DNA of 63,860 nucleotides, the filler included, from Rhizaria sp. SCN 62-66 (Eukaryota): NCBI GenBank assembly GCA_001724265.1. It is 3 parts of 3 records of this genome, joined end to end, with 100 filler letters (N's around TTAATTAATTAA, not from the genome) between each part and the next. Parts side by side here need not be neighbours in the genome. Positions count along the whole stretch, not along the records: positions 21,594 to 42,951 come from MEDY01000452.1; 2 more parts are not named here. One strand, 5' to 3'. The notes below the pieces were generated by a model. That model had not been told where the DNA came from and searched no databases. It worked only from the letters and a program-made list of their open reading frames with translations. Within the stretch, counting starts at the first letter, position 1. Each line of letters begins with the position of its first letter. Shown here piece after piece: positions 20,596 through 56,517 of the stretch. The translations under genes were made by a program, and so were the position numbers.

Positions 20596-22473
20596 TTAGA
20601 TGGCGAAGAAGGATTCCGTGTCCAGAAACGGCGCGCACACCTTGATCTGGTCGCTACAAACGACCGACTCGCCAATTAGAGTTCGATTGTTAATATTTGC
20701 GACGTTACTGACATCGCCGATAACACTAACACTACGAATGATTATATCTTCACGTCAATTAAAAGTAGCTGTCAAGAGTTCCGTGCACGAGTAAACTACT
20801 CATATGATACTCGCGCTCGTTATTCTATAAGGTGTATTCATTCTGCACATAGTACGTAAGCCTTACGTACTTATACTAGTACTACATGTACATGTATTAA
20901 ATAAGAGCGACGAAAGTGAAACGAATTTGTAGCGCATGTATCGCATGTATTATTGCTGTGATTGTGACGCAGTTGAAATCAAGGTAAAGTAGTAAGATTA
21001 AGTAAGTACATGAGCCCATCCAGTTGCGTGGTAACATAATGTACCAGCGCCTTGCCTTGAGCGATGTCTTCAGGCGACGCACCCGCCTAATTTGTATATG
21101 TGAGAACCAACGGTTTGGGCGAAACGAAAGCAGGAACGACCTGAACCGTGTTATCCCACTTACTCTCAGGCAACGCCAGCTTCTTAATCTGGTCCAGTTT
21201 CGAGTTCTTCCTGGCCCGCAGCGTGTCCACCTCAGTCTCCATCATACTAATAGCCTCTTTTAGCTCGCCAGACTTCTTCTCATTTCCCTTCACATTCTCC
21301 AGCTTCTGCTTCTGCTTCTGCTTCTCCAGCTGATCCAGCATCTGCATCTCGTCCAACTCAAGCGACGCTAGCGCATCCAGCTCTTCATCCTTCAGCTTCG
21401 TCACCTCCGCCAACAGTTGGATCTCCTGCTGATTAGGATTCTCATGCGCCTGCAGTTGCCTCCTCAGCATCTTGAGCCTCTCCGCCAGCTCCANNNNNNN
21501 NNNNNNNNNNNNNNNNNNNNNNNNNNNNNNNNNNNNNTTAATTAATTAANNNNNNNNNNNNNNNNNNNNNNNNNNNNNNNNNNNNNNNNNNNNGGCCAGC
21601 TCCGCGCGGGCCGCGGCCTCCTTGGCGATGTTGGCCTCGAGCGAGGTGCTGGTGCGGTGCAGGCTCTCCTGGCGGGACACGAACGAGGCCTCTTTCAGCG
21701 TAGCCTCCTGGCGCGCGCGGTCAATCTCACTGGCCTGCTTGGCGAGCGCGTCAGCCTTGCTCTTGAGCTCGCTCTCGCGCGCCACCAGCTCGGCGTTGAC
21801 CGTGGAGCCCTCCGAGATGCAGCCCTCGAGACGCTCGAGGAACACGGCGCGCTCGTGCATCTTGGCCTTCTGCGCGTCGAGCTGGGCCGCGACGGACGCG
21901 TGCTGCTCGTTCTCGAGCAGCGACGCGCTGTAGCTTGCCTGGGTCTGCTGCGTCTCCTGCGACAAGAGTCTGTGAGGAGTAGGAGTGGGACGAGCGGAGT
22001 GGGTGGAAGTGGACGAGAGGGATTGAACGGTGGTTACCGAGGGGAGGAAGCAAAAAAGAGGGACATGAGGCTTTTGAGAAGGTGTTTAGCGTGAATTCAA
22101 TGCATGCAGCAAGCGCTGATAAAAAATGACGTTTGAATGAAGCGACAGAGTGAAGAAACAAAAGTAGGCAAAGGGGGCGGGCCTGGAGAAGGGGTAAAGA
22201 GCAAAACAAGACAATAGCAGGACCTATGGCCGACATGGGAATGCGTAGGGCAGCGCTAAGTGTAGATTAAGGGACGTACTGAGCAAGAGAAGCCTCAATG
22301 TCCTGGTTGACATCCAGAAGCGAGGACACAGGCGACCCCTTAGCAGCAGCAGAGCGAGCTGAGCTGGGCGAGGCCACACCATTGAGAAGCTCATGGACAT
22401 CTGACGCATACGCACCTTCCGCCGCAAAAGCAGCAACGAAGAGCGATGCAAGGAGAAGGATACACAACTTCAT
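20596..22473 (-). CDS. Secreted coiled-coil protein of unknown function; spans an assembly gap and contains one in-frame TAG
   Basis: Signal peptide MKLCILLLASLFVAAFA. Exons 22473-22280, 21969-[gap]-21010, and putative last exon 20653-20596 (DQIKVCAPFLDTESFFAI, TAA). Heptad E/K/Q/A/L-rich on both sides of the gap. In-frame TAG at 21087-21089. Continuity across the gap and the last intron (donor GTACTT) are inferred. Confidence 0.62.
21494..21593. other. Assembly gap spacer (N44-TTAATTAATTAA-N44)
   Basis: 100-nt N run with a six-frame stop linker at 21538-21549; same format as the second gap. Confidence 0.98.
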
Positions 22474-23274
22474 GTGCAAAATTCCCCCGAACACCAATTG
22501 TTCTCGGCACCCTTCCGTGTCTTCACGCCCCCTCATCAGCCCCTTTGCCTCGCTTCGGTCGGTGGTCGGTCGCCACTTTTCGTTGGTTAGATTTTTTGAG
22601 AACCCGATTTGTGTTCCTAAAAACTCCGCCAACCAGCTATCGTAGTAGTTTTGAGCCACCATCGCGCTCGCGCTCGGTCGAACTGCGAGGATATCTCAAC
22701 AGTCCTTCGACCAATATATATCTGTTTGAGATATGATATGGTCGTCATTAAAACCTTTGATGTCTCGTTATTGCTGCGCTTGGAGCCCTTAAAACACTCC
22801 ACTGCACGCATATTTCTAGCACTCTCTCGCTTGAACTTGGACTTCGAACATGACCTGCTTTCTCCAGCTCTTGCACCTCACAACAAAGCCCAATAGTCTC
22901 ACTTCAACCGAATTCCCATTTCGACTGATTTATTGTACCTTTTAGATTTGCTTTTACTTCTTCAAGCTGTAGCTGCAGACATCTATCCCCACTTTCTCGC
23001 CACTTCTCTCCCTTCGCTGGCAACTTCGCCCCGCTGTCACTGCCGCACCGCTTCCCAGCGCCGCACTACCGCCTCCAGGCCCGCTTTAAGCCCATTAGAC
23101 TTATTGGTTACCAAAACGACCCCAAGAGAAGCATACCACTGCGAGTGACGTCTCTAACCCCGTCTCGCCCTCCCTAGCCTGCCCTGTTTGACTCACCATC
23201 GCAGCACAACACAGTAAGTCTTGCCTCGCAGCGCGCACCTTCTTTGCTTCCCACGCACCACCACCCCCGCACAC

Positions 23275-24608
23275 ATGTCCAGCTCCGGCCCCTCGCACCA
23301 CGACGTGGACCGCTGGATCTCGCAGCTGGTGACCAGCTGCGTGCCGCTTACCGAGCTCGAGACGACGGACCTTTGCGACCGCGTGCGCGACCTGCTCCTC
23401 GAGGAGTCCAATGTGCAGCCGGTGTCGGCGCCCGTGACGCTGTGCGGCGACATCCACGGGCAGTTCTACGACATGCTGGAGCTGTTCCGCGTTGGCGGGC
23501 CTCTGCCGCAGAACAAGTACATCTTCATGGGCGACTTCGTGGACCGCGGGCACCACTCGGTCGAGACGGTGCAGCTGCTTTACTGCTACAAGCTGCGGTA
23601 CCCGGACCGCATCACGCTCATCCGCGGCAACCACGAGTCGCGCGCCGTTACGCAGACGTACGGCTTCTACGACGAGTGCATGCGCAAGTATGGCTCCACC
23701 TCGGTCTGGCGCGCCTTCACCGAGTCGTTTGACTACCTGCCGCTGGCCGCACTCGTCGACGGGCGCGTGCTCGCCGTTCACGGAGGCCTCTCGCCCGACA
23801 TCGGCACCGTGGAGGAGATCAGGATCATCCAGCGCAACCAGGAGATCCCCAACCAAGGTCCCTTCTGCGACCTGCTCTGGTCCGACCCGGAGGACATCGA
23901 GGTACGCACGGCTAGAAGAGCTTATAATCAGTATATCTTGCGTATATGAGGGATATATGGGAATTTATTTGATGTTGAGATCATTGTGCTGTCCATGTAT
24001 CTATATTTTCAATTTCACAATGACACATCGATACCATGTTTTTTTAATGTTCTACAATCTAACGCTTCTACAATCTAACGCTTTTCAATCTAACGCTTTT
24101 CTTAACTTTGCATTCTGCGTTGCTATGATTACTTTAGGACTGGGCGGTGTCGCAGCGCGGCGCGGGGTGGGTGTTTGGCCACAAGCCGACGTCGATGTTC
24201 TGCCACATCAACGGTATCGAGCTGATTGCGCGCGCGCACCAGCTCGTCCACGAGGGCTTCCAGTACAAGTTCCCAGAGAAGAACCTCATCACGGTCTGGT
24301 ACGTCTTATCTCTACATCCGCCAAGATCATGTCATGTCTGAAATATAATATCGTATTTTAATATTCTCTTATTACATTTATTTTAGACTATCGAGATCTC
24401 ATTCTCCCACCTATCTTTCTTTGCTGTCATTCATTCCTTTTTGTTTTTACATCATTTTAGGTCTGCACCTAACTACTTCTACCGCATGCGCAACGTGGCG
24501 GCGGTGCTGAGGCTGTCGGAGCACCTGGACCGCGAGATCCGCGTCTTCACCGACGTCAAGATGAGCAACGAGACGCAGAACACGCCCGACCTCCAGTACT
24601 TCTTGTGA
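23275..24608 (+). CDS. PPP6C: PPP-family Ser/Thr phosphatase catalytic subunit, PP6/Sit4-like; 3 exons
   Basis: Exons 23275-23901, 24138-24298, 24461-24608. [47 protein letters not shown]-terminal YFL. Stop TGA. Confidence 0.9.
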
Positions 24609-25118
24609 AGTGCGGACTGACAGACTGACAGACTGCTAGATACAACTGCAAGCACCGACGGCTCGACTCTTTTCCATGGTGATTGCCAGGGCCAGGAATG
24701 AGTCACACGATTTCAATAGTTTAATATTAGATATTTTATATACATATTATTTTTATATTTTAGTTTCAGCGCCACAAAATCTTGTTTAATATTGATTTCA
24801 AGTCGCTTATGTTTGCTTGTTGGTCCTCGGTTGACACGCAATAGTGGCGAGATGGCAACACTCGAACCTGCGGCGAAATGGCGGCTTTCAAGAGAATCGA
24901 CCTCGTCTCAGGTTGATCGACAAGAGGGCGTATTATACCATTTTTTGATTAATATGCACTGTATTTAATATATTTATATTTTTTCTTTCTCACTATTCAC
25001 CAAATGACTCCATCTGCTGCGTTTTTCCTTTCTCCACTCCGCAGAGAAAGCACAGCCCACATTCCATTGCCTTAACACCAACGACCAGAGCTTATAACAA
25101 CACCCCAACTACACAGCG

Positions 25119-27595
25119 ATGCTTCTCAATGGCCCCGGCCGCCGCGCCGTTACCGCCGCACTGCCCCGCACTGCGTCCGCGCTCCTCGGTCGGCCGCAGC
25201 AGAGGCTGAGCACGACTGGTGCCCTCTCCTGCGCTGCATCTGCCGCCGCCCGCGCCCCCGATACTGTCACTGCGCAGACCGCGGCGGCTCTGACTGCGGA
25301 CGCTGTTGCGCGCAACAGTACCGCGCCGCTCGTGACCGGCGCGCCCCGCCGCGGCTTCAGCAGCGGGTTCACGGTCGTCTCGCAGCGCGAGGGCGCCGTC
25401 GCCGCCAAGCCCAATAGCAAGGACAGCAAAGACGGCAAAGACAACAGTAACAGTACCAAGGACGGCAAGGACGCGAGCAGCAACAACGCGCCCAGCCTTG
25501 CTGCTGCTTCTGCGTCTAGCGCCGACACGGCTGCTGCGACTGCAGCCCCGGCTGCGACAGCCTCCTCTGCGACACATGCTCCTGCTACACCGGCTGCATC
25601 GTCTACCGCCGCGCGCGACGACTACTTCGCCAAGCTGCACACGGTCTCAGCGCCCGTGTTCGCCAACTCGACCGAGTCCTCGACCGCCGCCGCCACGGCC
25701 GTGCCCTTCGGCGGCAAGATTGTCTACCAGTTCCCCCAGGCTGCGGCGCTGGCTCGCGCGGGCGTGACGCTGCCCGCCTCGGCGCTGCTGCTGTTACTCG
25801 TCGCCGGCGCCATCACGTTCTTCGGCCCCGGCGTCCCCACCGGCTCAGCGGACGCACGCAACAACACCAACGGCGCTGCGGCCACCATTGGCACTGGCGC
25901 TGGCGCTGCGAGTTCGAGTGAGAGTGCGAGTAGTCGGGGCTACGGCGTGGTGGGGGAGACCAAGACGCTCGACGCCGCCATCGCCGCCATCGCGGCCACG
26001 CGCGCGCTTAGCGAGACCGCCGAAACCGGCGTTGCTACCGTCAGCACTGCAGCTGCAGCGACTGAGACTGCAGCGGCTGCAGCGGCGGCGGCTGCGGCGG
26101 CTGCGGCGGCTGCGGCGCCGGAGACGATCAAGGACAAGCTGATGAAGCCATTCGAGCGGATGCACCGGGAGCTTACGGAGCTCAACACGGCCGCGTTCAA
26201 CAACGACGCCGTCAACAAGAGCGCCAACAAGGCCAAAACCAGCGCGATCACGACTGACGGTGAGATCAACGCAGATGGCACAGCTGCTGCTGCTGCTGCT
26301 GCAGGCGAGGAGGCGTCGTGGATGCAGCGTCTGATTGGCGACATGAAGCAGGGCAACACGCTCACCGGCCTCATCATCCCTTACGCCAACAACAATAACG
26401 GCAGCGGCAGCGCCGCGAGTCCCCCCGAGGTGGAGGCCGCGGCCGCGGCTGCGGCGGCGGCGGCGCGCGCGCAGTCGCGGCCCGCGCTGTCCGAGGCGCT
26501 CCTCCCGGTCCTGATCAAGGCCTCCTTCGCGGGCTGGCTGGGGCTCGCCGTCGCCTTCCCCTGGTTCCTCTGCACGCGCGCCGTGGGCACTGTCACGCGG
26601 CTGCCAGGCAGGCGAGTGCGCATCGTGCCCATCGGGCTGGGGCTCGGCTCCCTCTTCACCCCGCGAAGCATCACCGTCGACGCCGCGTGCCTCCTCCCGC
26701 CGCTCGCGCGCTCCGGCCGCGCGCGCTGGCCGCTGCAGCCCTTCGACGTTGTGTTGAATGCTGACGTTGTGGGTGGGGCCAAGGTGCGCCGGTTCTGGGG
26801 CATGCGCACCGTGCAGATGGGTGGCGGCCGCGCCGGCGAGGCCGACGACCAGGCTGTGCGCTTCGCGCGGCTCGACGCCCGCCGCAGCGCCGCCGCGGTC
26901 GCGCGCCGGCCCGGGCCCGTTCCCGGCGTTGCCGCGGCGCACGGCGGCGACAAGGACAGGGACGCGGCGGGGTCAAAGGGGGCCGAGGTGCGCAGGGCGC
27001 TCTCGCCCGTGGCACAGGTACGGACATTTAGGGAGACCGGCATATGCGAGGGTTTTTTGCTGTATCATATCATTTGATGAATTGCTTTACGCTATCATAA
27101 TACCCAATCTCTATTTGCTATTTGTGTGCTCACCATTTTGCCGCCGTTACTCTTCTGCTCTTCTTGTAATCATCTCTGCAGGCCGAGGCCGAGGCCCAGG
27201 CCTCTCGCGCCTCGCAGTCAACCTCCGACCGCCTCCGCGCGCTCTTCTCCCTGCCCCCCACCGGCGCTAACAGCGACAGCGGCAGCGCGGCCCAGAGTGG
27301 CCCGAGCCCGGGCGGGAGCGTTGAGGCGGTCGTCGGCTCCGAGGCCGCGCTGGGCTCCGCCGTGGTGGCCTATGGCGACACCCGCGCTGGCGCCGCGCTG
27401 GGCGACGAGTTCTGGGTTTGGCACGGCGTCGGCGTGCCGTGCACGCACCTGGTCGCCACTCCCGCCACGCTCGCCGCACACGCCAGGGCGCGGGCCGCCG
27501 CGGAGGCCGCCGTGGCCGCTAGCAGTCCCAGTGGCAGCGGCGGCGGCGGCAGTGGCAGTGCGGCGCAGCAGCAGGGGCCGGCGCAGGTGGTGTGA
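25119..27595 (+). CDS. Putative mitochondrial two-TM membrane protein, TMEM223/TMEM70-like, expanded by Ala-rich inserts; 2 exons
   Basis: Exons 25119-27017 and 27182-27595. Arg/Ala/Ser-rich presequence-like N-terminus, two hydrophobic helices, then RAVGTVTRLPGRRVRIV...ITVD resembling the TMEM223 C-terminal strands (family call is tentative). Stop TGA. Confidence 0.55.
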
Positions 27596-28228
27596 GAGGT
27601 AGTGCTGGTGGGTGCTGCTGCAGTGTCATTGTGCTAACACCGCCTGATATCATGTTTTCGGTGTCATTTGCGATATATTTATTGTTGTGTAAGAGTTGTA
27701 TTTTCAGCCACTCAACTCGTCCATACGTGCTGCGAATGGTGACACATTTTAATGCGCTGTGTTCGAGTCATAAAGCTGGGGCCTTACAATGCGTTTTTCG
27801 TGTCAAATACAGCTAACATATGTTACACTGAAGCTACTATTTCCTTCATAACATGTTTCTAGCATCATAATGCTGGCCATCACCAATACTAGGACATTAC
27901 ACTGTCATCACTCGATTATAGCTACAAATGGCGACATTGCAGTTTGCCGCCCCAATCGATGCTATTGTTGCATGTTGACCGTGAGTAATTTTCGAGATCA
28001 TATCCACTTATCATAGCGCTTGTGCCGGGTGAGCCACTGCAAATACGGCTCAATCGATCCAGTTCACGCCATACGGGTGGGCGAAAACGCGCGGAGGAGA
28101 GCATGCAAGAGCGCACGCACTACGTAAGCGCACAAGCGCCGACAAACATGCACGCTGTGCTGCGTCACATTACAGCATGTTCGCTGGTCGCCGCACGCAC
28201 ATCTGGTGTAATAAGACACGCCGTCTTG

Positions 28229-29719
28229 TTACCGCAGAAACAGAAACAATGTCTTGAAGATCTGCTCCTTCTGGGCGTGACTAAAGTCGTTGTTATTCAT
28301 AAGCCCATTGAAGAAGATCTTGAGCTCCAAGTTAAAGTCGTCCCGCCTGTCCCAGGACATTTGGGCAAGACGCTGGGGCATCATCAGCGACGCGAAGCGG
28401 TACTTGGGCAGGTCCGTGCTCGACTCGTTCTCGGGCCCTTTGCAGATGATGCGGTCTGAGTGGATAGTCACCGTGTCGCTGACGCCGTACGCTGTCCGCT
28501 TGCCGGTGTGGAGGTTGAACACAAGATCGTGCGGCATCGAGGTGCCGTTGATGATGTTCTCTAAAGCACGGAAATGGTTCTTCGTCATGTTGCGAAGAAT
28601 GTGCATCAACGCCTTTACATTCTACTCCTCTGCTTCAGACGCGGCGCGCTCCTCTGCACTCATATCATCCCAGTCTGGGAAAGTCTCGATTTCATCCTTA
28701 GCCACGAGATCAGCCCTCTAAATCTCGTCGTAAATCCGCTGCACGGCGATCCTGGCCTGCGCAACCTTGGACTTGGCCTTCTTGAACTCGTCTTCGGTGT
28801 CCTTCTTCCGCTGCTCGCCACCGTCGAGGACACCCTCAAGGAGACTGGTCTCCATCAGCGCATGCGCAAGCTCGGCCTGGTGGCACGCCTGCTGCGCCTT
28901 GATGAGCTCAGCCTCGGCGTCGGACATGCGGATCTTGTACCGCATCAGCTCGATCTTGTCACAGAGGCTCTTGGTTGAACTCTCAACATTCTCGACCGCC
29001 TTCTCAGCCTTCTCCACCTTAACATCATCCTCCTCGGCGGCTATTGCGTCGGACACCACCTTCTGCGCCTGCACCAGCTTCCCCTTGGACTGCGCCTTGA
29101 CAAGCGCGGCGGCGGCCGCTAGGAACTCGGATGACTCCGCCTCCGAGTACTGCTGCGGCTGCTGCTCTCTGGCCGCACTGCCCGGCTTGGGGGCATGACG
29201 CTGCTCATCGGCGGCTTTGAAACGCTTCAGGGCGGCGGCGAGTTCGCTCTCGAGCTGCGGCAGCGGCACACTGGCTACCGACTTGGCGTTGCTGTCGGTG
29301 TCCGTGTCCGTGGTCGACGACTCAGACTCGGGCTCGGACGAGGCCGTGCCGGCGTCCTTGCCCTTGGCAGCGGCCCGCGTCGCAAAGCTGCGGGAGACGG
29401 CGCCCGCGGGTAGCGCCCACGGCAGCAGAGCGCTGCTGGCGGCAAGAGAGTGGCGCGCGCGCTGAGGCTGAGACGTAGACGCCAGCGCGGCAAGCAGAGA
29501 CGGCGCCGACAGCGCGGGCGACGTGAGAGACGGGGCGAGACGGCGGGTGAGACCCGTGCGGCCACTGATCACACCGTTGTGGGCGGTGTTGTCGTGGGTC
29601 GCGAGCAAGGAGGACGAAGGCTTGCAGATGGACAACATGTCAGCAAAGAGTGGCGTTGTTACGGGAGAATGCGACGCAAGGAAGCGTGACGCACGAGAGG
29701 AAACGCGACTCAGAATCAT
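28229..29719 (-). CDS. Orphan coiled-coil protein with mitochondrial-presequence-like N-terminus; 496 aa if two TAGs are read through
   Basis: ORFs 28718..29719 and 28229..28609 share one frame and are separated only by TAG at 28718-28720 and 28622-28624; the linker is coding-like with no intron signature. Stop TAA. Confidence 0.72.
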
Positions 29720-30124
29720 GGCAACTCAGAGTGATGTGGCGAGCTGCTGGGATCTGTAAATCAGCAAAATTACAGGCGAAATCAAATACAGTAAGCTTTA
29801 AAAAGTATTATGTACATGCATCCCCCGAATTAATGCTGGGGTATTGGTCTATCATCCGTTTAAGTACGAGTACATGCGTTACGAGACGAGAGATTTGTTA
29901 CTTGAGTTTGATGTTGACCCCCCAGATCTTTAGAGAGAGATATTGCAATGAAAACGCAATTGCAGGAAAAACAATGGGTAAAACAAGTAGAACAGCCAAT
30001 TTCACATGCATAAAACTGAATAATTCTTATTTAGCTGCATAATGAGATCGATATTGTCCCTTTAGTTTGGACAGATGACCTATGAGGGCCTCCCGTTCCC
30101 GAAGCCCACCCCGTGACCGTGAGT

Positions 30125-30572
30125 TCAAAGAGGGGAATGCGCATTTTTCCACTTGAGACTCGCAATCGCATTGTGGAATGCGGCCCTTGCCACCCCCAAC
30201 TCGCGCTGCGCAACGATGTACGCGGGGGTAATCAGGGCCGACTGCGCTCGCCTTGCTGACGAGCGCGCGCTCGGCCTCGGCGACGAGCCACCGGTGCGCC
30301 GCCAAAAACTGCATGCTGTGCTCCGTGCTGGACGCGGTTGACGACGCGGCTGAGGCGCCGGAGGACGCAGAGGCTGACGCCGAAGCAGTAGCTGCACTCT
30401 CAAGCCCCACTTGTTCTCCGACTGGCAGATCACTCCACACCTTTGTAGAATGGAAAACAAGATAGAATAACGACAAAAACATAGTGTTGCCAATGACTAG
30501 TGTTGGTGTTTGCGACATACTGGCTTTTAAGGCCCTCACGTACATCACATGCGGTTGTTCCTCTTTTTTCAT
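30125..30572 (-). pseudogene. Possible frameshifted gene fragment
   Basis: GC3-rich codons follow one frame up to about 30250 (EHSMQFLAAHRWLVAEAERALVSKA) and a different frame afterwards (AQSALITPAYIVAQRELGVARAAFHNAIAS...TGA). Confidence 0.33.
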
Positions 30573-30953
30573 GACAACCACTGACCTTCGGACGAAAAGG
30601 ATTACTCTAACCAGTAACTAGTCGTTGGCCACAACTAGGTTTGACCAGCGGGCGAGGTCGCTATCACTCACGTATCTTATCTTTAGCGTCAACAATCTCC
30701 AGGCTAGGATATTTTGATTTATTTGTGACTTTAATTACGACCTTTTATTTACACGCCTGATCTGTGTGACTATCCCTCGCATCTTGCTTTTCCAAGTCCT
30801 CACTCCGTTAGCCTTCATCTTTGCCGCCCATCTTGCTAAGACCAGCTCGCCTCCCGGTGGACTAAAAGACAACACACCCGCAGCAGCGACACACCCAACC
30901 CCATCACACGGAAGTCACTTTGCTGAAACAGCAAGGCTCCAGCTCGCTCCCCA

Positions 30954-32810
30954 ATGCCCCCGCCGCCGGTCCACGTGCCCGCGCCGCTGCAGCCGGGCGA
31001 GTCGGTGGCCGACTGGGACATCTACGCCGTGCTGTCCCTCCCCGACGGGCTCGCCGCCACGCCCGAGGACCTGCGCGCGGCCTACCGCGACATGTCCCGC
31101 CTTATCCATCCGGACCGCAACCCCGACGACCCGACGGCTGGCGCGCGCTTCGACCAGCTCAAGCGCGCCTACGACTACATCTCGGACCCTGAGGCGCGCG
31201 CGGGCTATGACGCGCTCCTCGCGCTGCGCCGCCAGCGCGCGCAGGCCCGCGAGCGCGAGGACGCCGGCGCGCGCGGGCTGCGCGATGCGCTTGAGGCCCG
31301 CGAGCGCGAGGCCGCCGACAAGCGCGCCTTTACCCAAGCCAAGTCGCGTTTGCAGCAAGTCAAGGACGCCGACGCCGCATTCATTGCCTCGCTGCTCGCC
31401 GCGGGCAAGCTCGACGGCGGCACGGCCACTGGCGCCGCCTCTGCACAGAAGCGCTCTGCTGCCCAGGCCCACGGCGCGGCGCACGGCACGTCGTCGCTGT
31501 TCCTCGCGCGTGCCGCCGAGGCCGCCGTATCGGGCAACGCCCAGGCCCACGCACACACTGCAGCGGCCGCTGCCGCCGCAAGCGCGCGGGCGGCGCGCGC
31601 GTTTTTCTCCGCGGAGACCGCGGACGTGGACGTCGTTGCCGCGGGCTTCTCGGCCGCCAAGTCGCGTGGCGTCTTCGGGCCTGCCCGCGAGACCGCCGCC
31701 ACCGCAGCCGCCGCCGCCGCCTTCACCGACAGCACCGACGACAGCGCCGCTTCCGTGGGCGCTGCGAGCGGGCTGGGGCTGGGCCGCGGGCTGAGCCGAC
31801 AGGAGGTGCTGCTTTCTCTCCAGCAGTCGCTCGCCCAGGACAGTGCTTCAGCGGCCAGCCGCCTCTCTGCGGGCAATAGCAACCCGTTCGTGGCGCTCTC
31901 GGCCGCGGTGGCGGGCGGCGGGCGCGGCGACGCAGCGGGCTGGGATGGCCGCGTCACCGGCCGGCCCACCAGCAGCACCGGCAGCGGTGGCGGTGTCGCT
32001 ACGGCTCACAGCGAGGGTGCAGATGCCTCGGCCTCGGCGTCGGCTACTGTCGGCGAGCCGCGCAGTGAGGGACCGCTTTTCGGGCCCTTCCTGCCTCTGG
32101 ACACCGCAGGCGCGCGCAGTGACAGCCACAGCAGCAGCAGCAACAGTGCGAGCACATGCAGCAGCAGCGGCGCCGTCCGCTTGGAGTGGCCGGCCGACGC
32201 TGGCTCTGCCGTCGATGACAGCAAGCTGGCAGCGCGGCTCGCGGGCGCCGACGGCGCCAGCGCCAGCGCCAGCGCGGACAGCAACAGCTTTGCCGCTGCT
32301 AAGAGCGCGTTGTTGGTCTCCCCGGCCGCTGCGAGCGTTGCCTTGGCCGCGCTCACGCAGCCGCAGGAGGGCCGCCAGTCCTTCGCCTCCGCTGCCGCCG
32401 CACACAGTCAGAGTCAGAGTCAGAGTCGCAGTCATGCGAGCTCCAGTGGCTCTGGCTCTGGCTCTGGCTCTGGTTCTGGAGCGGGTGTGAGTGCGAGTGA
32501 GCGCGGCAAGAGGGGGGCGCGCGGCGCCTTGCCGTTTGTTCCCTTGACAGCAGCTGATGACACGAGCAGCAGCAGCAGTAAGCCGAGGTCTAAACACCCA
32601 CGGTCCCGGTCTAAGGGCGCTGGCGGCGATGACGACGTTATCGACGTTACCACTAACAACAGCGACAATGACGACGACGAAAACGGTGTTGAGATCGTGC
32701 TGCCCTCCCCAGCAACAGCAACCAAGATTGTGAGCGCGAGTGCGAATAGTACGACTGTTGCGAGCAATGGCGGACAGAGCATGGTCGACGTCGACGATGT
32801 CGATGGCTAA
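30954..32810 (+). CDS. J-domain co-chaperone, DNAJC17/Cwc23-like
   Basis: N-terminal J domain with HPD (IHPDRNPDDP), then DPEARAGYD...RDALEAREREA typical of DNAJC17/Cwc23; low-complexity remainder. Stop TAA. Confidence 0.82.
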   Translation: MPPPPVHVPAPLQPGESVADWDIYAVLSLPDGLAATPEDLRAAYRDMSRLIHPDRNPDDPTAGARFDQLKRAYDYISDPEARAGYDALLALRRQRAQAREREDAGARGLRDALEAREREAADKRAFTQAKSRLQQVKDADAAFIASLLAAGKLDGGTATGAASAQKRSAAQAHGAAHGTSSLFLARAAEAAVSGNAQAHAHTAAAAAAASARAARAFFSAETADVDVVAAGFSAAKSRGVFGPARETAATAAAAAAFTDSTDDSAASVGAASGLGLGRGLSRQEVLLSLQQSLAQDSASAASRLSAGNSNPFVALSAAVAGGGRGDAAGWDGRVTGRPTSSTGSGGGVATAHSEGADASASASATVGEPRSEGPLFGPFLPLDTAGARSDSHSSSSNSASTCSSSGAVRLEWPADAGSAVDDSKLAARLAGADGASASASADSNSFAAAKSALLVSPAAASVALAALTQPQEGRQSFASAAAAHSQSQSQSRSHASSSGSGSGSGSGSGAGVSASERGKRGARGALPFVPLTAADDTSSSSSKPRSKHPRSRSKGAGGDDDVIDVTTNNSDNDDDENGVEIVLPSPATATKIVSASANSTTVASNGGQSMVDVDDVDG

Positions 32811-33300
32811 GCGCAAAAATGACAAACTACTCAGTCGAGTCGACTTAACAATAGAAACACACTGCCTTTTCAAGTTGTTATTTGCTGTTTTCAAGTCATT
32901 GTGTATTCAGTTCATGCCTATTGCTACACACGTGGGTCTCCTGGCGCATAGCAAGCGTCTTCAAACATATGCGCTGATATGTGCTTGTTTAATCTCCATT
33001 TTGCGCTTAGACCGCCGCCGCCGCCGCCACTGCCCGCGAGCTTCTGCAGCTCCTCCGAGACCTCAATTAATGTATGTCTAATATCAGACTAAAGTCATAT
33101 CAAATATGTTAATTTATTTGACGTTACCGTGTTTGTTTTTGAAAATGCAGATAATATTTTCATTTTGATGGATGATTCGGCGCACCTGAATCGAGCAGAT
33201 GCACAAGCATAACACACAATTGACTCGAGGAGATACATAAATTATACTAGTATCGGAGAAATAGATCCATGACGCAATATTTTAAGGAGCTGCATGCCTC

Positions 33301-36300
33301 TCACAGTTGTCCCGCCGCTGTGCCACGTGCTGCCCCTCTGTAGCTGTCTCTACTGTCGTGGGTGTGAGTGCGGAATGCGTCTTCGGTCTCCGTCTCGTAC
33401 TAGTCTGTCATGAGCTGCCCGATGCCGTCGACTGCGCCGCTGCTGCCCGCGCCGCGCGCCTACAGCCACTCAGCGCCGTCAATCATTCGCAGCACACCGC
33501 TGGCGTCACCGCCAACGTTGCCACTGCTCACGTCACTGCTGGCGCAGCAGTCACCGCCAGTCTCCCGTGAGTCACCAGCGCCAGCGCCATCACTGTTTGT
33601 GCGAATGATTTTCGACTAAGGAGCACTCAAACAACTGCTAAAGTATGATGTTTGGGTGCCCGCAGCGTTTATACCCGCAGTAACACTGTCACCGTCGTTG
33701 TTGTTACTGGTAACGACGTTGTTTGTATCACTTGAAGCAATAGCAGCGACAGCCAGGCTAAAAAACGCGCGGCCCGTTGCTGTTGTGCTGCCCAGGCACG
33801 CGTTCGAACAGCTGCTGACCGTGCTGCTGCGGCGCTGGCGACTACAAAGAGCGATGCAAACACCGACGTTGCTCCTTGTGTTAGTAGTAACGCGGAGTTG
33901 CGCCTTGTGGGCACTAGTGCGTAGTGTCGCGAAGGAGCGGCGCGGCAGAGGACTGCCGGTACTGTCAACAGTGCTGACACCACTGCTGCGCGAACTAGCG
34001 CTGGCAACTGCAGCGCTTGCGTGAGCGGCGTCTTGGCTTGCGGGGGTTGCGGCAGAGCTGGGGTGGCTAAGTCTGCGGTCGCGCACCCAGGCCAGACTAG
34101 GGTCCTGCTCGAAGTCAGTCAGCGACGCTGCGTGCAGCGCCTGCTCGCTCAGCGCACGCGCGCTCTCGCTCTCGGAGATAACTTTCTCGCTCTCCGACAG
34201 CAGCTCCTCGCTGCGCTGCAGCGCGCGGTCGCTTACTTCCTCGTTGTTAGAGACGAGCAGCCTCTCACTGTCAGACAGCATTTCCTCGCTGTGATGCAAT
34301 GCGCGGTCGCTCGCATCCTCGTAGTCAGCGCGGCTAAGGTTAGCTGCGCCGCCATAGCTGGGGCAGACAAAATCTTGAGTTGATTGTGCATTAGTAGCCG
34401 CGTGAGGTGTGTTTGTGCTTGCGTTGCTTGTAGTGCCGTCGTCATCTTGGATGCGCATAGCAAAGTTGCTCATGTTACTAGTGCCGTTTTTCTCAAGCGA
34501 ATTGCAGCGCGTGACTCTTGGCACTGCAAGCGTGAGCAGCTGCAGCGGCGAGCGGCCCCCACTCACGCACGGCGTCCCCGTTCCCGCGTCCAGAGTCACG
34601 CGGGCCCGGTCCTCGCCCCATTCGCAGTCGCGCTCGCGCTCACGTTGCTCTTCAGCCGCCGCTGAGGGATCATCAACCTCCGCTTCGGCTTTGAACTCAG
34701 TCTCGTCCTCGGCAACTACTGCGACAGACTCGGCCTGTGCGGCAGCGGCGGTTGCTGCAGCGGCGCTGGCGCGAGCCGCGGCAACAGCGGCAGCAGCAGC
34801 AGCGGACGCGACAAAGGAACTCTCCTTGGCAGCGTCTAAGCTAGTGACGCTGTGTTTGTCCGTGGTAGCGTTTTGACTTGAGCTGCTGCCCAGATGAGTG
34901 CTGTTCTCACTTGTGTGATGTGTGCGACCGGCACTAGCTGAGTTGTTAGCGCTGTCTCTGTTAAGCTTGTTGGCGTTGACAAACGTAGGCAGCATGAGGT
35001 CTCCGTCGTACACGCCAGTGACAAAGTCGACGAGTGCGACACGTGCGGCGAGCGGCGACCGCGTCACGAGCTGCGCTGCGTCAAGAAACACGGAAGAGGC
35101 ATCTTGCCCCGTTGATTGCGCCCGTGTCAGCGCTTGTAATCGTGAACGCGACCGTGATCGTGAGCGGGACCGCGATTGCGCGCGTAGGTGGTCGAGCGAC
35201 TGCATGTGCTTATGTTTGCTCTGGTGGACGTGATTGTGCGCACCATCAAAAAGCCCACGCACACCATGCTGACCACGTTCGCTTGCTGTGTGCGCAACAC
35301 CCAACGCTCTCTTGCGCGGCTGCTCCGTGGCGTGGTGGCTGTGCGGCAGCGTTCGCGTGTGCAGCACGTGGTGCCACGGCACCGCCCACCCGGCGCCGTC
35401 GCCGCCCGCCTCGTCCTCGTCCACGGGCCCCCACTTCGCGCCAGCTTTGTCGCCGGGCGTGGCAGCACCGCGTTTGTGAGGAAACAGTCTGTGACCGTGC
35501 CTGCGTGTGGGGCTGTAACTGATATCATGGTTGCGATTATAAACGTTCTATGTCAAACGACGTTGACTTGCCTACACGTCTCCCCGCTTCTTCCGCAGCT
35601 GATCAAGTTCATGCTGGTGCTGCTGCAATATCTCAAGCCTGTCGATTGTGTTAATTGCACTTGCACTTGCGTCGTCATATCCGTCGGCAGAACTGTCCCT
35701 GTTGCGGTTATACGTACTTCCTGTGTTGATACCGCCAGGCTTGTGGCGCAACATACTTGCAACACTTAACTGCGAGCCAGCACGGCTTGTGTTATGCGAT
35801 ATCAGGTTGTTAAACGCAGTGCTAATGCCAACGCCTCCCGGAAAAGTACTATGAGAGGCGTTCGCGCTCACAGTAGAGCTGTACTGCCGCCGCGTCCACC
35901 ACGCGCCCTGGCCGCCGTGGGCGGGCCCGCTAGCGCCGGTGCTGGCGCGGCTGTCTTGGCCGGCGTGGCTCGCAGCGGCAGCGCGGATGGCCGCAGTGGT
36001 CTCCTCGGCAATCGCGGTGGCCTGCGCGCTCTTGAGCAGGTGGCGCCATGATCGCGGCGGCTGCGGCGCCCAGCCCCCCGCCTCGGCGCCCAGCTCAGAG
36101 CTGCTGTCTTCATGAATGCTTGCAGTGCCAGTGCGGCGTGCGTTCGCGGTTGAATCTGAGATCGGCTGGCCACGCATGTGCACAGACCAGTGCGCGTCGC
36201 CTCCAGCGCTAGAGTCCGCGCCTGCGCCTGTGCGATGAACGCTGTCTGTAATGTCACTGTAGGCGGACGCTGTGGGCGGCGTCAGCGACTGCGCGGGCCA

Positions 36301-39300
36301 GCGCAGCGAGGCGCGGTTGCGCAGCGCGGCGGCGATGACCTCCGCCAGTGACACAGGGCCGCGGGCGGCGCTGGTGCCTGGGCCGTCAGTCGAGGGCGCT
36401 GTTGCAGCTCCGACGCCACCAGCCGTACTGCGGGCGGCGCGAGGAGACTTTGGGTTGCTGCGATCACCATATGAAGCAAACCTTGCAACATGATGTGCGC
36501 TGGCACGGCCATGGTGTTGGATGTTGCCGCCCATGCTGGTATCCGCCGCCCATGCAAGGGGGCTGTAGCTGTGGTCGCTCGCCTCAGCTTCTGCAGCAGC
36601 CTCGGCCTCCGCCGCAGCCACCGCCGCGCGCGCAGCGTCCTGAAGATACGCCGAGTAGCCCCGCTCGCGAGCCCGCGACTGCTCCCAGAACTGCGACCAG
36701 TCGCCGCCGCCCACGGCTGCAGCGTCGCCTTGGCCCAGCTTTAGACGAACGCCCGCTGTGTCAGCGGCGCCCACATTGGCAGTCGCGCGCGCACGGGCGC
36801 GGGCATTAGCCTCAGCGTCAGCGGCCGCCTGCGTCAGCACTAGGATTCGCTGCTCCTCGCTTTTCGCGACCACAACGTCGTTGCCGCTCTCGTGCGCACG
36901 GCTCGCGCGCGCATCCATGTAGGTCTTGTGATCGACGGGAGCGTCCTCTGCAAGCGCGGCGCGCCGGTCGCGTTCGCGGTCGCGGCGGGCCGCCACGAAG
37001 CGTGCGCGCGCCGCCAGCTCGCGCCACAGCGGCGCCAGCGCGGCGCCTTTGGCCGGGCCCAACAGCCGCGGCACTGGAGCCGCCGCCGCACCGGTGCGCA
37101 CCACTGCGCTGTTGCCGCGGCTGTCGGTGACAACGGCGTGGGGCGCTGCGGCTGCGTCGGCGTGCCCGCGGAGCGCGTGCAGCGTGCGCGCGCGCAGGGA
37201 CTCCCTGTTGTTGTTTTCGAACACGCCGGTTCTGGCGCTGACGTAGTCCGCGCCGCGCCCCGCGAGCCGTTCTAACTCCTCCTCTTGCTGGTGCAGCTGC
37301 TTATAGTGATTTTGCGCCTCCGCGCGCCGCTCGCGCGCGAAGGCGAGCTCCTGGAGGTCGGCCGCGTCCGGCAGCGCCAGATCGGCCCAGGTAAGCGGGC
37401 TGTACGCCGCAGCGGGGACGCTGAGGTGGACGGGGGACGCGCTGACGCCCATGCGCGCGTGTGGCGAGTCTGTGAGCTCACCGACGGAGTAACGCAGACC
37501 GGAGTCAGCATGGCCTCTGTCACTTAAACTAGAGCTATTTGTGTAACTGTTGTCGTAGTCGTCCTCGGTGTTGCCTGTATTAGTGCCGCTGCGCGCTTTC
37601 CTTTTAGTGCCGGTAAACGGCGCTGTTGCGGCCGGCGTGGAGAGGGGCGAGAACATCGGCTGGGACACAGGAGAAAAGAACGTTGCTTCGTCGCTGTTGC
37701 TAAAACTGTTGTTGTTATAGCTGTTTCTCCGCGCACCGTCGCTGTCGCTGTAGCTGTGACGGCCACTCCTCGCGGCTGCACGATCATTGCCAGTGTCACC
37801 ACCGACGATCGCAAACCACCTGCCAGCACGACTGCGTCTCGCGTCACCGTTGCTGGCGCCGGTGTTGTCAGTGGGTCTGTCACTACTGTCTGTGCGCATA
37901 TGCTGCTGGTAATGCGGTTCGCCCTGCGGTTGTTGCTGCTGTTGCCGTTGCGATTGTGCATACCTCGACCGTGCTGACTGCGACGGCGGCGACCGCTGCG
38001 GCGACTGGGAGAACACGGGGAAGCCGCTCCCGCCGACGCGGCTCGCCTGCTCCCCACGGCCTAACTGCGATCCGGGGAACTTAAGCCCAGTGTAAGTGCC
38101 GAAGCTCCTCCGGCCGCTCGTGCCACTGCCGCTGCTTGCATTGCCAGTGCTACTATCTCCGCTGTTTTTCACAACGCCGCTGCCGTGCGTACCGCCGCCA
38201 TTGCTATGCGGTTTGCTGCTATTGTGCATTACCGAGCGCGCGGGTTGCCAGCGCACGCCGCCGTGCGCGCAGCTGATAAACGTGCCCGCGCCCGCACCCG
38301 CGGGCTCCGCCAACAGCGCCGACGACGGGCAGTGGCGATGACCGTGGGCCGCGGAGTGCGCCGACGGGTGACCGTGGGCCAGGGGCCCTTGCGTGTCGCG
38401 GGTCGCTATACCAGCTCCGGTATGGTTATCGGTGGCAAGACCGCCGCTTGCGTTGCTGACGGTGCTACTGGTGCAGTTGTTGCTGTCAGAGCTGTCGTCT
38501 CCCTTGTTCTCGCCGTCGCCGTTGATGCAGTAGCTGAGCCCGCTGAAGGTGCTGAGGTCGCGCACCGTAGACTCGCCCAGCTGGCTCGTGCTCGCGTGCT
38601 GGTAGCCGCCACGCGCACCACCAGCACCCTTGTGACTGTGAGCAGCAGTCTGACCGCAAGCAGCGGAGTGACCGTGAGCGGAGTGACCGTGGGGCGGCAC
38701 GGCGGGAGGACGCAACACAAGCCACGGCTGTGGTAGTGCTGATGTGGGCGCGGCGGCAGGCGCCACTTCGCCGCCCTTCAAGTACTTGAGGCAGTTGCTG
38801 ACGGCAGTAGTACCGCTGCCGGGAGCCGATTTATTAACCGAGTGGGCAGTGTGAGTCGAGCTTGCATTGATAATGTTAGAGTTGCCGCCACCGCCAGACA
38901 TACGTGCTCTGCTGTCAAGCTCGCACTGCGGCGCCAGGCTGCTTGCCCGCATGTGCACAGTGGTGCCCTTGAGCGCGAGGTCCCCGCTATTTCGACTGCT
39001 GCTGCTGCTGCTGCTGCTGTCGACTGAGGGCGCTGAGTGCGGGTCGTTTGACTGGGACGGTGCATGCGCGCTGGCGCTACTGTTGCCGCTTGCAATGCCG
39101 CCGTGCTGGATAGCCGCAGGGCTGTTGCTGCAGCGTGTGCTACTGAAACGCATGTGGTTAGTAACGTATTGCTGGAGCGGACATGTCACCGTGTTGTGAC
39201 TTGAAGCGAGGGAGTGACTTGAAGTAGCGACCTGGCGGCTCAATGCGGCCTCGCCCAGGCGACGACTTGAAGATTCAGATGCTTTCAGCAAGGGAGCCAG

Positions 39301-39333
39301 CGCGCGACTGCGCAAGTTTATCGCGCGGAGCAT
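33301..39333 (-). CDS. Large low-complexity orphan protein with presequence-like N-terminus; about 2010 codons with 5 in-frame TAGs
   Basis: One frame runs from ATG 39333 to TGA 33301-33303 with no TAA/TGA, only TAG at 35572, 35548, 33616, 33460 and 33400. May splice (intron 33304-33078) to a last exon 33077-32912. Confidence 0.75.
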
Positions 39334-39880
39334 TGTTCTGAGTGTCGATGTGGGCTGCTGTCTCTTAAGCTAGAAAGCAACTGTGAGCTCAAAGGCAAGC
39401 AACGTTACTCGAACGTGTGTACTGCGCCAGTCCAATTAGAACAGGGTACATCGTATGAAGGCAGACGACTTAGGAAATTTAAAAACGAATAAATAACTAA
39501 ACATAGCATTTACTGTTGCCGGCGCAACCATGGATCTGATAACGGTTTGTTCAAGTTCATTTGAGAGAGACTTACAAAGAGTACTGAGCCAGGTCATGTG
39601 TGCCACGTGGAAGCCCCGTTGTTTGAGGCCGGTGGCAGCACACCACTTGAAGTGATCGCATATAGACAGCAAACTTGTTAAAACATATGTGTATCGGTGT
39701 AGTACTGCGTTTCTTTTTTCTGGTTACGCGCCAATGAGTGGACAGTAGTTAGCCCCCACAACTCTTAAACAGCTTCATCAATATATGGTTTGTTTGTTTC
39801 AAATTCTCCCTCTCTCCCCCCGCACTCGCAGTGCTGGGGTCTCTGGAGGGACGCCGTGTCTCGCGCGCGCGTGGTCGCGC

Positions 39881-40927
39881 TTAGTTGGCTGAGGTGAACT
39901 TCTTGGCAGCCGAGATCTCGCCCTCGGCGCCCTCGGTGGCGGCCTTGGCGTAGTCGCCGAACTTGCTCACCACGAGCGCCTTCTTCTTGTCCTCAATTGA
40001 CTTGCAGCAGACCAGCACCTCGCGCTTGAGCGAGTTGTGCAGCGTCTCGGCCTCGTCCGCCTTGCTCTGCGCCGAGTCGATCTCGACCTGGGTCGCCTTC
40101 TTGGACTCGACCGCGGACTTGAAGCTCGCCTGCTTGGCGTCGAAGTCGAGGCGCGAGTCAGAGGCCTTCTTGATCAGCTTATCCGTCGACTTGACGTCGT
40201 TCTCAAGCAGCTCCGAGACCGCATCGATGACCTGGGATTGCGGTAACAAAGCAAAGCAAAATGGTAGAAAGAGTGTGTGAGACGAAAGGGAAACGCGTTA
40301 GACACTTAACTGTACGTGCAGTGCGATCATTACGTCTTGTCTAAGAGTAAAAGCAAACTATTCAAAAAGAACCCACACAAATCCACAATACAGAGCCACA
40401 TTAGGTCGCTTTCATGACGACTGGAGCACCGAAAGAAAATCATTCCCGACGTACGTGGATCTTGAAGGCGGCGAGGCGCGTGGCCTGCGCGGTGTGGGCC
40501 TCGGCGACGAAGGTGCCGAAGGCGCGCAGCGAGGCGTGCGAGTCAGCGTCGGTGGACTGGACCTTGGCGGTGGTGGAGCCGAGCGCGAGGAATGACTCGA
40601 GCGCGGAGGCTTCGGTCTTGTGCCACTTCTTGGCGGCCTCGAGGAACTCGGTCATCTCGTTGCGCGTGGCCTTGAACTGAGCCACGGCGTCGACGTACTC
40701 CTGCGAGTCCGCAGTAGACTCGGCCTTGCCAACCTCTGCGTGGGTGGATACAATCAGTTACAACAGATACAAACGTCATGGTGAGGAATTGGGATGAGCA
40801 AGAAAGAGTGGGGCAAGCGGGAGGATACGAGAGTGCGAGCGATTGGAACAGGGAAACAAAAGCGGGGATAGAACGTACTCTCCTTGGCGAACTGCTTAAG
40901 CTTGTTGAACTTGTCGAGGAAAGACAT
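39881..40927 (-). CDS. BAR-domain protein; 3 exons
   Basis: Exons 40927-40879, 40735-40455, 40231-39881. N-terminus KLKQFAKEKVGKAESTAD, helical body, SRLDFDA motif; strong codon bias. Stop TAA. Confidence 0.78.
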
Positions 40928-41409
40928 TGTTGATTCTACGCAGTGCAGGCAAGATCATCAAAAATGAAGCGGTTTGTAAGGCATGGGATGTGAGATTTGT
41001 GAGGTAGCGGTTAATGGATACGGCAGGCACGAGGCCGCTAAGATTCTGGAGCTATACCGCATGATTCTGTGGGAAAACAAGCACTCTGAAATAAAGAGTT
41101 AGCACACCAGCACATATAAACTCAGGACAAAAACAATCTGCCTCATTTCACCCTAGGATCATCGAGATGTGGTGGCCGAATTGTGTCTTACACGTCGCCT
41201 CTCGAAGACGAGAGGCCAAGAAAAAAAATCAACAAATCATCTCTGTCAGCGGCTCGAATTCGAAGCTCGTATCGACGATATCTCGCTTAAATCAAAGACT
41301 CTGGGGATTTAATTGAACAAAACATAACCCTGCGCTATCTCATGTATTATATCTCTATTTTGTTATCGCTGACGATTATCAAAGCCCAGACAGCGCGTTC
41401 CCCGAGCCA

Positions 41410-42499
41410 ATGGACTTCATCCGCGCCGGTTCTCGCGTCGCCGCCCCGCGCCTGCTGACGGACCGCGGCGTGGCCTCCGAGACCGACCCGTACCCCTGGG
41501 AGGACGCCCTCTCAGCGCATGTGTTCAACCAGCGCCTGGATGTGTTCTACCCCGCGCCCGCGGTCCCCACGGCGTCCGCATGCGCAGCGCACGCCCCTGC
41601 CGTGTCCTCCGCCGCCGCCGCGCTCGCCGCCGCGCTCGCCGCGGACGCCTGCTTCTACGCTATCACGGCGCCCTGGCCCGCGCTGCTGTCCCCTGCCTTC
41701 CTCACCCCGCTGCGCGCGCGCTTTGCCGTGTCGTTCGCGTCCGCGCGCACCCCGCTGGACCGCGTCTCCTCAGCAGCGCTCCACCCCTCCGGCCTACTCC
41801 ACTTGGCGCTCGACCTGGATACGTTCCAGACGCTGGGACTCGAGGCCGCCGCGCCCGCCGCCAAGCGCGCGCGCACCACGCGCCTGGGCCGCCAGCGCTC
41901 GCGCCGCGCCGCCACGCGTTACGACGTCGAGGTCGACACCAGCACACCCAACCACAAGAGCTCTGCGCCCAACGCCGCTGCTGGTGCCACTGATGCTGCT
42001 GCTCTGGTGGCTACCGTCGTGTCGCCCGCGGTCAGCCGACTGCTGTGGTGCCTGGCGCCCGAACGCGTGGGCTGCCCCTCGGTGCTGTTGCTTCTCTCGC
42101 GCAAGCAGACCCCTGACAATTCCACTCTAGCGTTGAACGACGACAGCTCTAGCTCCAGCTCCAGCTCTGGCTCTGGGTCTGCAGATGCCGCCCCGCTACC
42201 CACCGCCGAGGAGCTCAGGCAGCTTTTGGCGGCTACGCTGGCGCCTGTGCCCGCCGCCGCCCCCGCGGCCCCCACCGCCGCCGCCGCCGCGCTGGCCGCC
42301 GCCGCCGCGGTCGCGAGGGCCCGCGCGACTTCTCTCGCCGCCGCGACCTCGCTGCTGGGCCCCGGACCGCTCTCTGATAGCGCCGCCGCGAACGGCAATG
42401 GCAGCAGTGGCAGTGCGTATGTGGGTGCGATTAGCGTTCGCGCAGTGCCGTTTGCCTCCGCGCTCGCAGTCACCCCTAACCATGACAACCCCACTGGCC

Positions 42500-42543
<44 letters not shown>

Positions 42544-42907
42544 GGCGGACACAGTAAGGCTGGCGAGACGGTGTTGTCATGGCTGAAGCTGGCCGAGGTT
42601 GCCGCTCCCGACACAATCCCCCTCCACGGCGTCCGCGGCGAGCCCGCAACCTACGCCACGGGTACTTACACCGGTCTAAGTACCCATAACAGTTCCAGCT
42701 CCAGCTCCAGCGCGAGCTCTAGTGAGGACTTCGTGTCGCTGGGGACGCTTTCGCGCCCGCACAACTTTGGCAGCAGCAATAACAGTAATATCAAGCATCA
42801 TCACCACACCAAGCACAAGGGCAACAGCTACAGCAACAGCAACAGCAACAGCAACTCATATCCCAGCACTAGCGCCAACGCTGCAGCGCCCGATGTCGCC
42901 GCCGCGC

Positions 42908-42951
<44 letters not shown>

Positions 42952-56300: not shown

Positions 56301-56472
56301 GAGGGTGGTGCAGACGCAGCTGCAGCTGCAGCAGCAGCAACGGACGCTTCTGCAGCAGCAACAGCAGGCGCTGCAGCTGCAGCTGCACATCAACCAGCAA
56401 CAGCAGCACCTGCAGCAGCAACACACGCTACAGCAGGCAACCACTGGCAAGCAAGGCGCTATGAATAGCAGC

Positions 56473-56517
<45 letters not shown>

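Follow-up and report, generated by a model that had tools for sequence, protein, structure and literature searches.

Among described nuclear genetic codes, the closest to what is considered here are those in which UAG alone has moved from stop to sense. In Rhizaria sp. exLh UAG encodes leucine, and in Iotanema spirale it encodes glutamine, both being UAG-only nuclear codes (PMC5304391). The same source gives, for 71 genes of exLh, 384 UAG codons and a set of terminators that comprises 56 UAA and 15 UGA, and describes UAG as rare in the highly expressed genes for ribosomal proteins (PMC5304391). A UAG-only stop-to-sense code is also described for phyllopharyngean ciliates (PMC11687900). In another group of organisms, comprising Condylostoma and Parduczia (PMC4967479) and Blastocrithidia (PMC12153298), the codes are described as ones in which the meaning of a stop codon depends on its context.

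The DNA analysed here (the window) is a stretch of 63,860 nucleotides, in which one gene with a putative coiled coil (the coiled-coil gene) has two in-frame TAG codons and a second gene (gene B) has five. As in exLh and Iotanema spirale, the in-frame stops are UAG only, genes end only in UAA or UGA, and the use of UAG is uneven between genes. Unlike exLh, with its 384 UAG codons in 71 genes, the window has 7 TAG codons in ~12,000 codons, confined to 2 of ~16 scored genes. The organism also differs from the lineages with UAG-only codes in being GC-rich (GC3 0.77) and in having introns that begin with GTACGT. The likeness to Condylostoma, Parduczia and Blastocrithidia is that standard stops lie inside genes and are translated, here putatively; the difference is that in those organisms all three stops serve as sense codons, and do so often, whereas here TAG is the only stop found in frame, and TAA and TGA act as ordinary terminators.

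The window is eukaryotic: it has spliceosomal introns and eukaryotic genes, among them those for the ribosomal protein eS7, an importin-11-like protein, an NVL/Rix7-like AAA ATPase and DnaJ. Coding regions have a GC3 of 0.77, and introns and spacers are GC-poorer. DNA identical or near-identical to the window occurs in wastewater and activated-sludge runs, and the host would be an uncultured, GC-rich, intron-poor microbial eukaryote of wastewater or activated sludge. The eS7 gene (48675-49425, minus strand) is split by an intron, and its exon 1 scores best, among solved structures, against animal eS7 (87 bits), a weak hint that does not suggest a ciliate; entries given without an organism come next. 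The Atlas taxa of the AAA ATPase were uninformative about affinity.

Reading Frame and In-Frame TAG Codons

The minus-strand frame from 29719 to 28229 comprises 496 codons and, when translated, contains exactly two in-frame stops, both of them TAG (Table 1). An earlier note on this DNA had described two in-frame TAGs that join two ORFs; translation confirmed this, with the frame ending in TAA, and the peptide string that the note quoted around the TAGs matches the minus-strand translation letter for letter. In the codon model described below, the frame scores 175 bits and is positive along its length, with the 2 TAGs inside it. The standard code splits the frame into an ORF of 333 amino acids and an ORF of 126 amino acids, which are present in public protein sets as separate predictions, P0001 and P0002; P0001 uses an alternative start, M28, at position 29638.

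Between the TAGs lies an acidic linker. It is purine-rich, as had been noted earlier, with a purine fraction of 0.63 compared with 0.29-0.40 in three introns that were verified by RNA. Its codon score is +0.11 in frame, the two alternative frames having -0.49 and -0.74, and its GC3 is 0.55, versus 0.78 for the whole coiled-coil gene.

Table 1. Positions of the features of the coiled-coil gene and of gene B in the window, and of the related gene on contig L002, with omega from the comparison of the window copy with the L002 copy.
Feature	Position	Strand	Extent	Omega	Remarks
Whole reading frame	28229..29719	-			ATG at 29719, TAA at 28231-28229; presupposes decoding of both TAGs
N-terminal stretch	29360..29719	-	~120 residues		Rich in S, R, A and L, few acidic residues; absent from the L002 ORF, which starts MSLPSKK
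Helical region	28721..29272	-	~residues 150-333		Rich in K, E, A and Q
Coil, part aligned with L002			137 codons	0.31	
First in-frame TAG	28718..28720	-	Codon 334		Context GAG ATT TAG AGG GCT
Acidic linker, RADLVAKDEIETFPDWDDMSAEERAASEAEE	28625..28717	-	31 codons	0.77	In frame in L002 too; 86% nucleotide and 74% amino acid identity; 3 synonymous and 10 nonsynonymous differences
Second in-frame TAG	28622..28624	-	Codon 366		Context GAG GAG TAG AAT GTA
Conserved C-terminal domain	28232..28621	-	130 codons	0.40	No known family; Fisher p 0.0006; 55-codon core 95% identical in amino acids to L002
Gene B (orphan, low complexity)	33301..39333	-			TGA end at 33303-33301, likely ATG at 39333
In-frame TAGs of gene B	35574-35572, 35550-35548, 33618-33616, 33462-33460, 33402-33400	-			
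Related gene on L002	4310-5512 (of L002)				TAA end at the same place as in the window copy

A Related Gene and Selection on Both Sides of the TAG Codons

When 1.84 billion representatives were searched exhaustively with HMMER, three clusters were returned: two were the window's own ORFs and the third was P0003, which is 68% identical and whose C-terminal end coincides exactly with the place of the first TAG. Apart from the ORFs of the window itself, word-based protein searches returned nothing but P0003, which lies on a 103.7-kb contig, and P0005; both are from the lineage of contig L002, in which the gene is likewise split in databases into two predictions. The protein searches thus placed homologues in two lineages only. 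Genome contigs and viral contigs were scanned for relatives with no match, and a scan of metagenome contigs gave two loci, L001 and L002. L001 is 100% identical to the window across ~1,357 aligned nt and has both TAGs; because of this identity it may be the same data and is not an independent confirmation. L002 is a 6.9-kb contig with neighbouring genes that differ from those in the window.

At the codon of the window's first TAG, L002 also has TAG (5021-5023), and facing the second TAG it has CGT (5117-5119), a codon for arginine. The earlier note had proposed looking in paralogues for the residue that faces each TAG; the columns obtained from L002 are TAG against TAG, and TAG against CGT within a variable stretch, and they name no residue. 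The copies align without a gap over 301 codons, from SEFLAAAA to the shared TAA, with ~80% amino acid identity, whereas the 3′ UTRs directly after that TAA are not alignable between the window and L002. The earlier proposal that the linker is translated is supported by this difference, together with the linker's 31 codons having no indel, TAA or TGA in L002. With the frame, the first TAG and the ungapped alignment all recurring in a relative, the arrangement exceeds what chance would give.

Omega was calculated from Nei-Gojobori counts for each of three regions, i.e., the coil, the linker and the C-terminal domain (Table 1). In the C-terminal domain there are 29 synonymous differences over 82 sites and 52 nonsynonymous differences over 308 sites, and by these counts the sequence 3′ of the TAGs is under purifying selection. 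Of the linker's 93 nt, 13 differ, whereas the synonymous rate of the coil would lead one to expect ~23 (binomial p 0.007); the linker's own omega, taken together with its GC3, indicates that constraint on the linker itself at the level of the protein is weak. Since the first TAG is common to both copies, it predates their split, and since the frame and the protein have been selected from that time on, a decaying pseudogene is excluded and a non-coding linker is unlikely.

The divergence of the C-terminal domain is itself very uneven. Its 55-codon core (28382-28546 in the window, 5195-5359 in L002) is 95.8% identical at the nucleotide level, with dS 0.11, and the remainder of the domain is 67% identical, with dS 1.08, which suggests gene conversion between the copies or constraint at the level of the nucleotides.

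Introns and RNA-Type Contigs

Contigs of four runs (X1, X2, X4 and X5) were placed on positions 21600-41500 of the window. No run listed as carrying this DNA is on record as RNA, and the RNA type of X1 and X2 was read from splice joints. Three minus-strand GT..AG joints (21970-22279, 40232-40454 and 40736-40878) are present in both X1 and X2, and the first of them is present in X5 as well, whereas X4 has none of the three and includes one contig that is unspliced through both of the introns near 40 kb. Thus, X1 and X2 hold spliced RNA and X4 is DNA; the RNA is from this organism or from a strain about 0.5% different. A three-exon gene (39699-40900, minus strand, TAA at 39881) has the highest RNA-type depth of the stretch, ~40-47 in X1 and X2.

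All three RNA-verified introns have a GTACGT donor and a CAG acceptor, and they are 60-71% pyrimidine overall and 65-80% in the 20 nt that precede the acceptor. A fourth intron, predicted in the importin-11-like gene (17701, plus strand), begins with GTATGT; the donor consensus is strict across these three verified and one predicted introns, which form a small sample. For the coiled-coil gene, 160 GT-AG pairs could take out both TAGs without a change of frame, and none of them has a GTACG or GTATG donor. Six have a GTCCGA donor, and splicing at any of these would cost 447 nt or more of conserved coding sequence.

The earlier note had stated that the linker has none of the signals of the modelled introns, i.e., a GT[AC][CT]G donor and a pyrimidine-rich acceptor. 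This holds for GTACGT and for the pyrimidine-rich acceptor, but not for the donor pattern as it was written, as GTCTGA at 28640, between the TAGs, is one match to it within the linker. This site cannot remove the first TAG, because it lies after it, and splicing from it to the nearest downstream AG sites would excise 80 or 82 nt (counted by hand) and therefore break the frame. The broader claim, that the linker is not an intron, finds support in the absence of all three elements, namely GTACGT donor, pyrimidine-rich tract and CAG acceptor.

The bins within the gene (28240-29567) have depths of 1.56 and 2.36 in X1, 1.12 and 1.30 in X2, and 0.17 and 0.77 in X5; neither flanking bin has any depth in X1, and in X2 one of them is empty and the other has 0.52. 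Among the joints listed, none falls at 28622-28765, where the depth is low (1.6-2.4 in X1), and none of the contig pieces listed covers the linker.

TAG Codons and Terminators Across the Window

A codon log-odds model was trained on ten other genes of the window, which together have 9,295 codons and no in-frame TAG, and all frames were then scored with TAA and TGA as the sole stops. Two high-scoring genes contain TAG, i.e., the coiled-coil gene (2) and gene B (5), and all seven in-frame stops in these two genes are TAG, none being TAA or TGA. This gives 7 TAG in the ~2,450 codons of the two genes, versus none in the ten others. The terminators of 12 other high-scoring genes are TAA in eight and TGA in four, with no TAG, in a small sample in which gene ends were called from ORF and codon-score evidence rather than from orthologues. 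If TAG normally ends 20-25% of genes, none among 12 would be expected by chance with p ~0.03-0.07. On L002, the three terminators are TGA, TGA and TAA. A further ORF of the window (41410-42999) would be a thirteenth gene with a TAA end, which lies in a 12-base island between masked N runs, so that this gene end is unreliable; there are two pairs of such runs of 44 N (at 21494-21593 and 42952-43051), the runs of each pair being 12 bases apart.

The sequence that follows a TAG differs from the sequence that follows a terminator. In-frame scores after the TAGs are +0.11, +0.25, +0.02 and +0.23, with one 7-codon segment at -0.75, whereas the score after 14 TAA or TGA terminators is negative in all 14 over 31 codons and in 13 of the 14 over 104 codons. 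Another TAA or TGA recurs within 104 codons after 13 of the 14 terminators, compared with none of the TAGs before the final stop. The base that follows TAG is A or G at five of the seven sites and T at two; after the first TAG of the coiled-coil gene it is A in both the window and L002. A TAG in the ORF at 50739-51302 was considered as evidence and rejected, as in the translation it appears just past a GTACGG-like donor and is probably intronic.

In gene B, two of the TAGs are 8 codons apart and three are near the end, with no TAA or TGA before the terminal TGA. Within 33301-39435, a sixth TAG (39372-39370) lies upstream of the likely ATG. Over the 104 codons that follow the TAG at 33616 the codon score is +0.23; beyond the TGA it is -0.59. 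Record 3 of X1 (35253-35829) and record 9 of X2 (34870-36032) span the first two TAGs with no joint, and the letters in which they differ from the window (2 in the former, 6 in the latter) are all away from the TAGs of gene B. Thus, neither splicing nor editing removes the TAGs at 35574-35572 and 35550-35548. Gene B belongs to no Pfam family and the protein searches gave no relatives for it, so its TAGs are without comparative support and depend on the codon score only.

Alternative Explanations

Translation beyond a UAG does not in itself require a change of code. Readthrough extensions are known from the UAG of retroviral gag-pol and, in fungi and animals, from glycolytic enzymes that have peroxisomal isoforms, and one can suppose that the standard code applies here too, with programmed or leaky readthrough at the conserved UAG: the majority of ribosomes would terminate at codon 334, giving a 333-aa coiled-coil protein, and the others would continue into the linker and the C-terminal domain, giving an extended isoform. 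This is unlikely, though it is the strongest of the alternatives: as in programmed readthrough, the first TAG is at the identical codon in L002, which is equally expected of a functional readthrough site, the in-frame extension is under purifying selection, and the lack of UAG from ten other genes, with 9,295 codons between them, fits a site-specific event better than a general sense codon. Unlike in programmed readthrough, however, the window copy would need two events 32 codons apart and gene B would need five, and ordinary efficiencies multiplied over so many events would leave almost no full-length product. A C after the stop is the context of leaky readthrough, yet C follows TAG at none of the 7 sites; no stimulatory structure was detected, as the RNA of the linker is not unusually structured in the 116 nt from the TAG (fold z +1.52 for the window copy, -0.26 for that on L002); and readthrough does not predict that TAG is absent as a terminator from other genes. 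A less likely supposition still is that there are two separate products, the gene ending at the first TAG and the downstream ORF being made alone, either from its own transcript or after ribosomes reinitiate at the Met of RNMTK that both copies share, with the common frame a coincidence. The separate public gene calls (P0001/P0002 and P0003/P0005) agree with this, as does the conservation of the Met in LRNMTK in both copies, but L002 has Leu in place of the initial Met of P0002, and the 43 codons from the first TAG to the Met of LRNMTK would be non-coding, although the linker is free of indels and of in-frame TAA and TGA in both copies, has its best score in this frame, and is 86% identical in nucleotides where the real 3′ UTR cannot be aligned. 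Two genes would moreover be separated by a same-strand gap of ~100 nt without an AT-rich spacer, unlike all other gene boundaries in the window.

Removal of the TAGs by one or more non-standard introns is very improbable. An example would be an intron of 123 nt in phase 0 from GTGCAG at 28744 to an acceptor formed by the TAG at 28622, and such an intron might be read into the existence of the 160 in-frame GT-AG pairs, into the second TAG being usable as a YAG acceptor, and into the GC3 of the linker being below that of its flanks. The donors of those pairs are nevertheless unlike those of the three verified introns, with their GTACGT and their richness in pyrimidines, and the linker is 63% purine; the proposed TAG acceptor is CGT in L002, the linker equals the exons in conservation, and a similar pair of TAGs in gene B is crossed unspliced by RNA-type contigs. 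About as improbable is that the gene is a decaying pseudogene or that the TAGs are errors of sequencing or assembly. In-frame stops are the usual mark of a pseudogene, and this is an orphan gene found in two lineages only; yet there is no frameshift and no TAA or TGA, the first TAG is common to a diverged copy with the frame kept since, and omega is 0.31 before the first TAG and 0.40 after the TAGs, which also tells against the decayed copy that the earlier note had named as a refuting outcome. The RNA-type depth within the gene, set against flanks with none in X1 (and 0.52 on one side in X2), speaks against both suppositions, and both TAGs are also present in L001, though L001 may be the same data.

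Possible Reassignment of UAG

The preferred reading, to which a probability of about 0.55 is given, is that UAG is not a stop in this organism and is decoded as a rare sense codon. The locus would then be one protein-coding gene with an mRNA that retains both UAG codons, at each of which the ribosome would insert an amino acid instead of terminating; genes would end in UAA or UGA, and UAG would be a very rare sense codon that is tolerated in few genes. The product would be a protein of ~496 amino acids, with a presequence-like N-terminus, a helical region resembling a coiled coil, the acidic linker, and the conserved C-terminal domain of 130 amino acids. Decoding of UAG would presumably be genome-wide and, by analogy with other lineages in which UAG has been reassigned, may involve a tRNA with the anticodon CUA, an eRF1 that recognises UAG poorly, or both. 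ARAGORN detected no tRNA gene on L001, on L002 or anywhere in the window, and none of these sequences carries a gene for eRF1. That UAG is recoded, as the earlier note had proposed, is supported by both TAG-bearing genes and by the terminators within 64 kb; for the genome as a whole, the claim rests on these two genes and these terminators, to which L002 adds 7 kb. Counting against a settled sense codon is that UAG is extremely rare and clustered, as an even spread would be expected of a fully established one.

More tentatively, and with the odds somewhat against it, this could be an undescribed stop-to-sense reassignment of UAG, or a loss of UAG as a stop, at an early stage, in a GC-rich wastewater eukaryote that is uncultured and not a ciliate. 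UAG would have been abandoned as a terminator and would now be almost unused, occurring mainly in genes that evolve fast or are weakly expressed, with one conserved UAG site that joins two protein modules. A search of the literature found no paper that describes such an organism, which is no proof that there is none. If the suggestion is correct, this would be a natural example of the intermediate that is predicted by the codon-capture and ambiguous-intermediate models and is seldom seen. Nuclear code changes outside ciliates are few, and UAG-only changes are fewer, so another would be an independent case of stop loss, and a GC-rich lineage with very sparse use of UAG would be especially informative about how a stop codon is lost. 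As gene calling under the standard code split both this gene and its relative into two proteins each, the annotation of contigs of this organism in metagenome catalogues is likely to be wrong wherever TAG occurs.

A 2,566-codon ORF on the plus strand (53323-61023), which has long poly-Q, poly-N and poly-A runs and belongs to no Pfam family, contains no TAG, and its Gln codons are therefore all CAG or CAA. Judging by this ORF, TAG would be a very minor synonym if it encoded Gln.

The Predicted Protein

No Pfam family matched the 496-codon product at E 0.01, and the best match in a profile search of the PDB (E 0.073) was not significant. An AlphaFold model of the C-terminal domain was unusable (pLDDT 44), and matches in Atlas features shared 85-115 of 256 features, which is in the range of chance. 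By its composition, the helical region would be a coiled coil, and the N-terminal stretch resembles a presequence for targeting to an organelle. This N-terminal extension, of more than 100 residues, is present in the window copy only; given this difference and the different neighbouring genes, the copies in the window and on L002 may be paralogues rather than orthologues.
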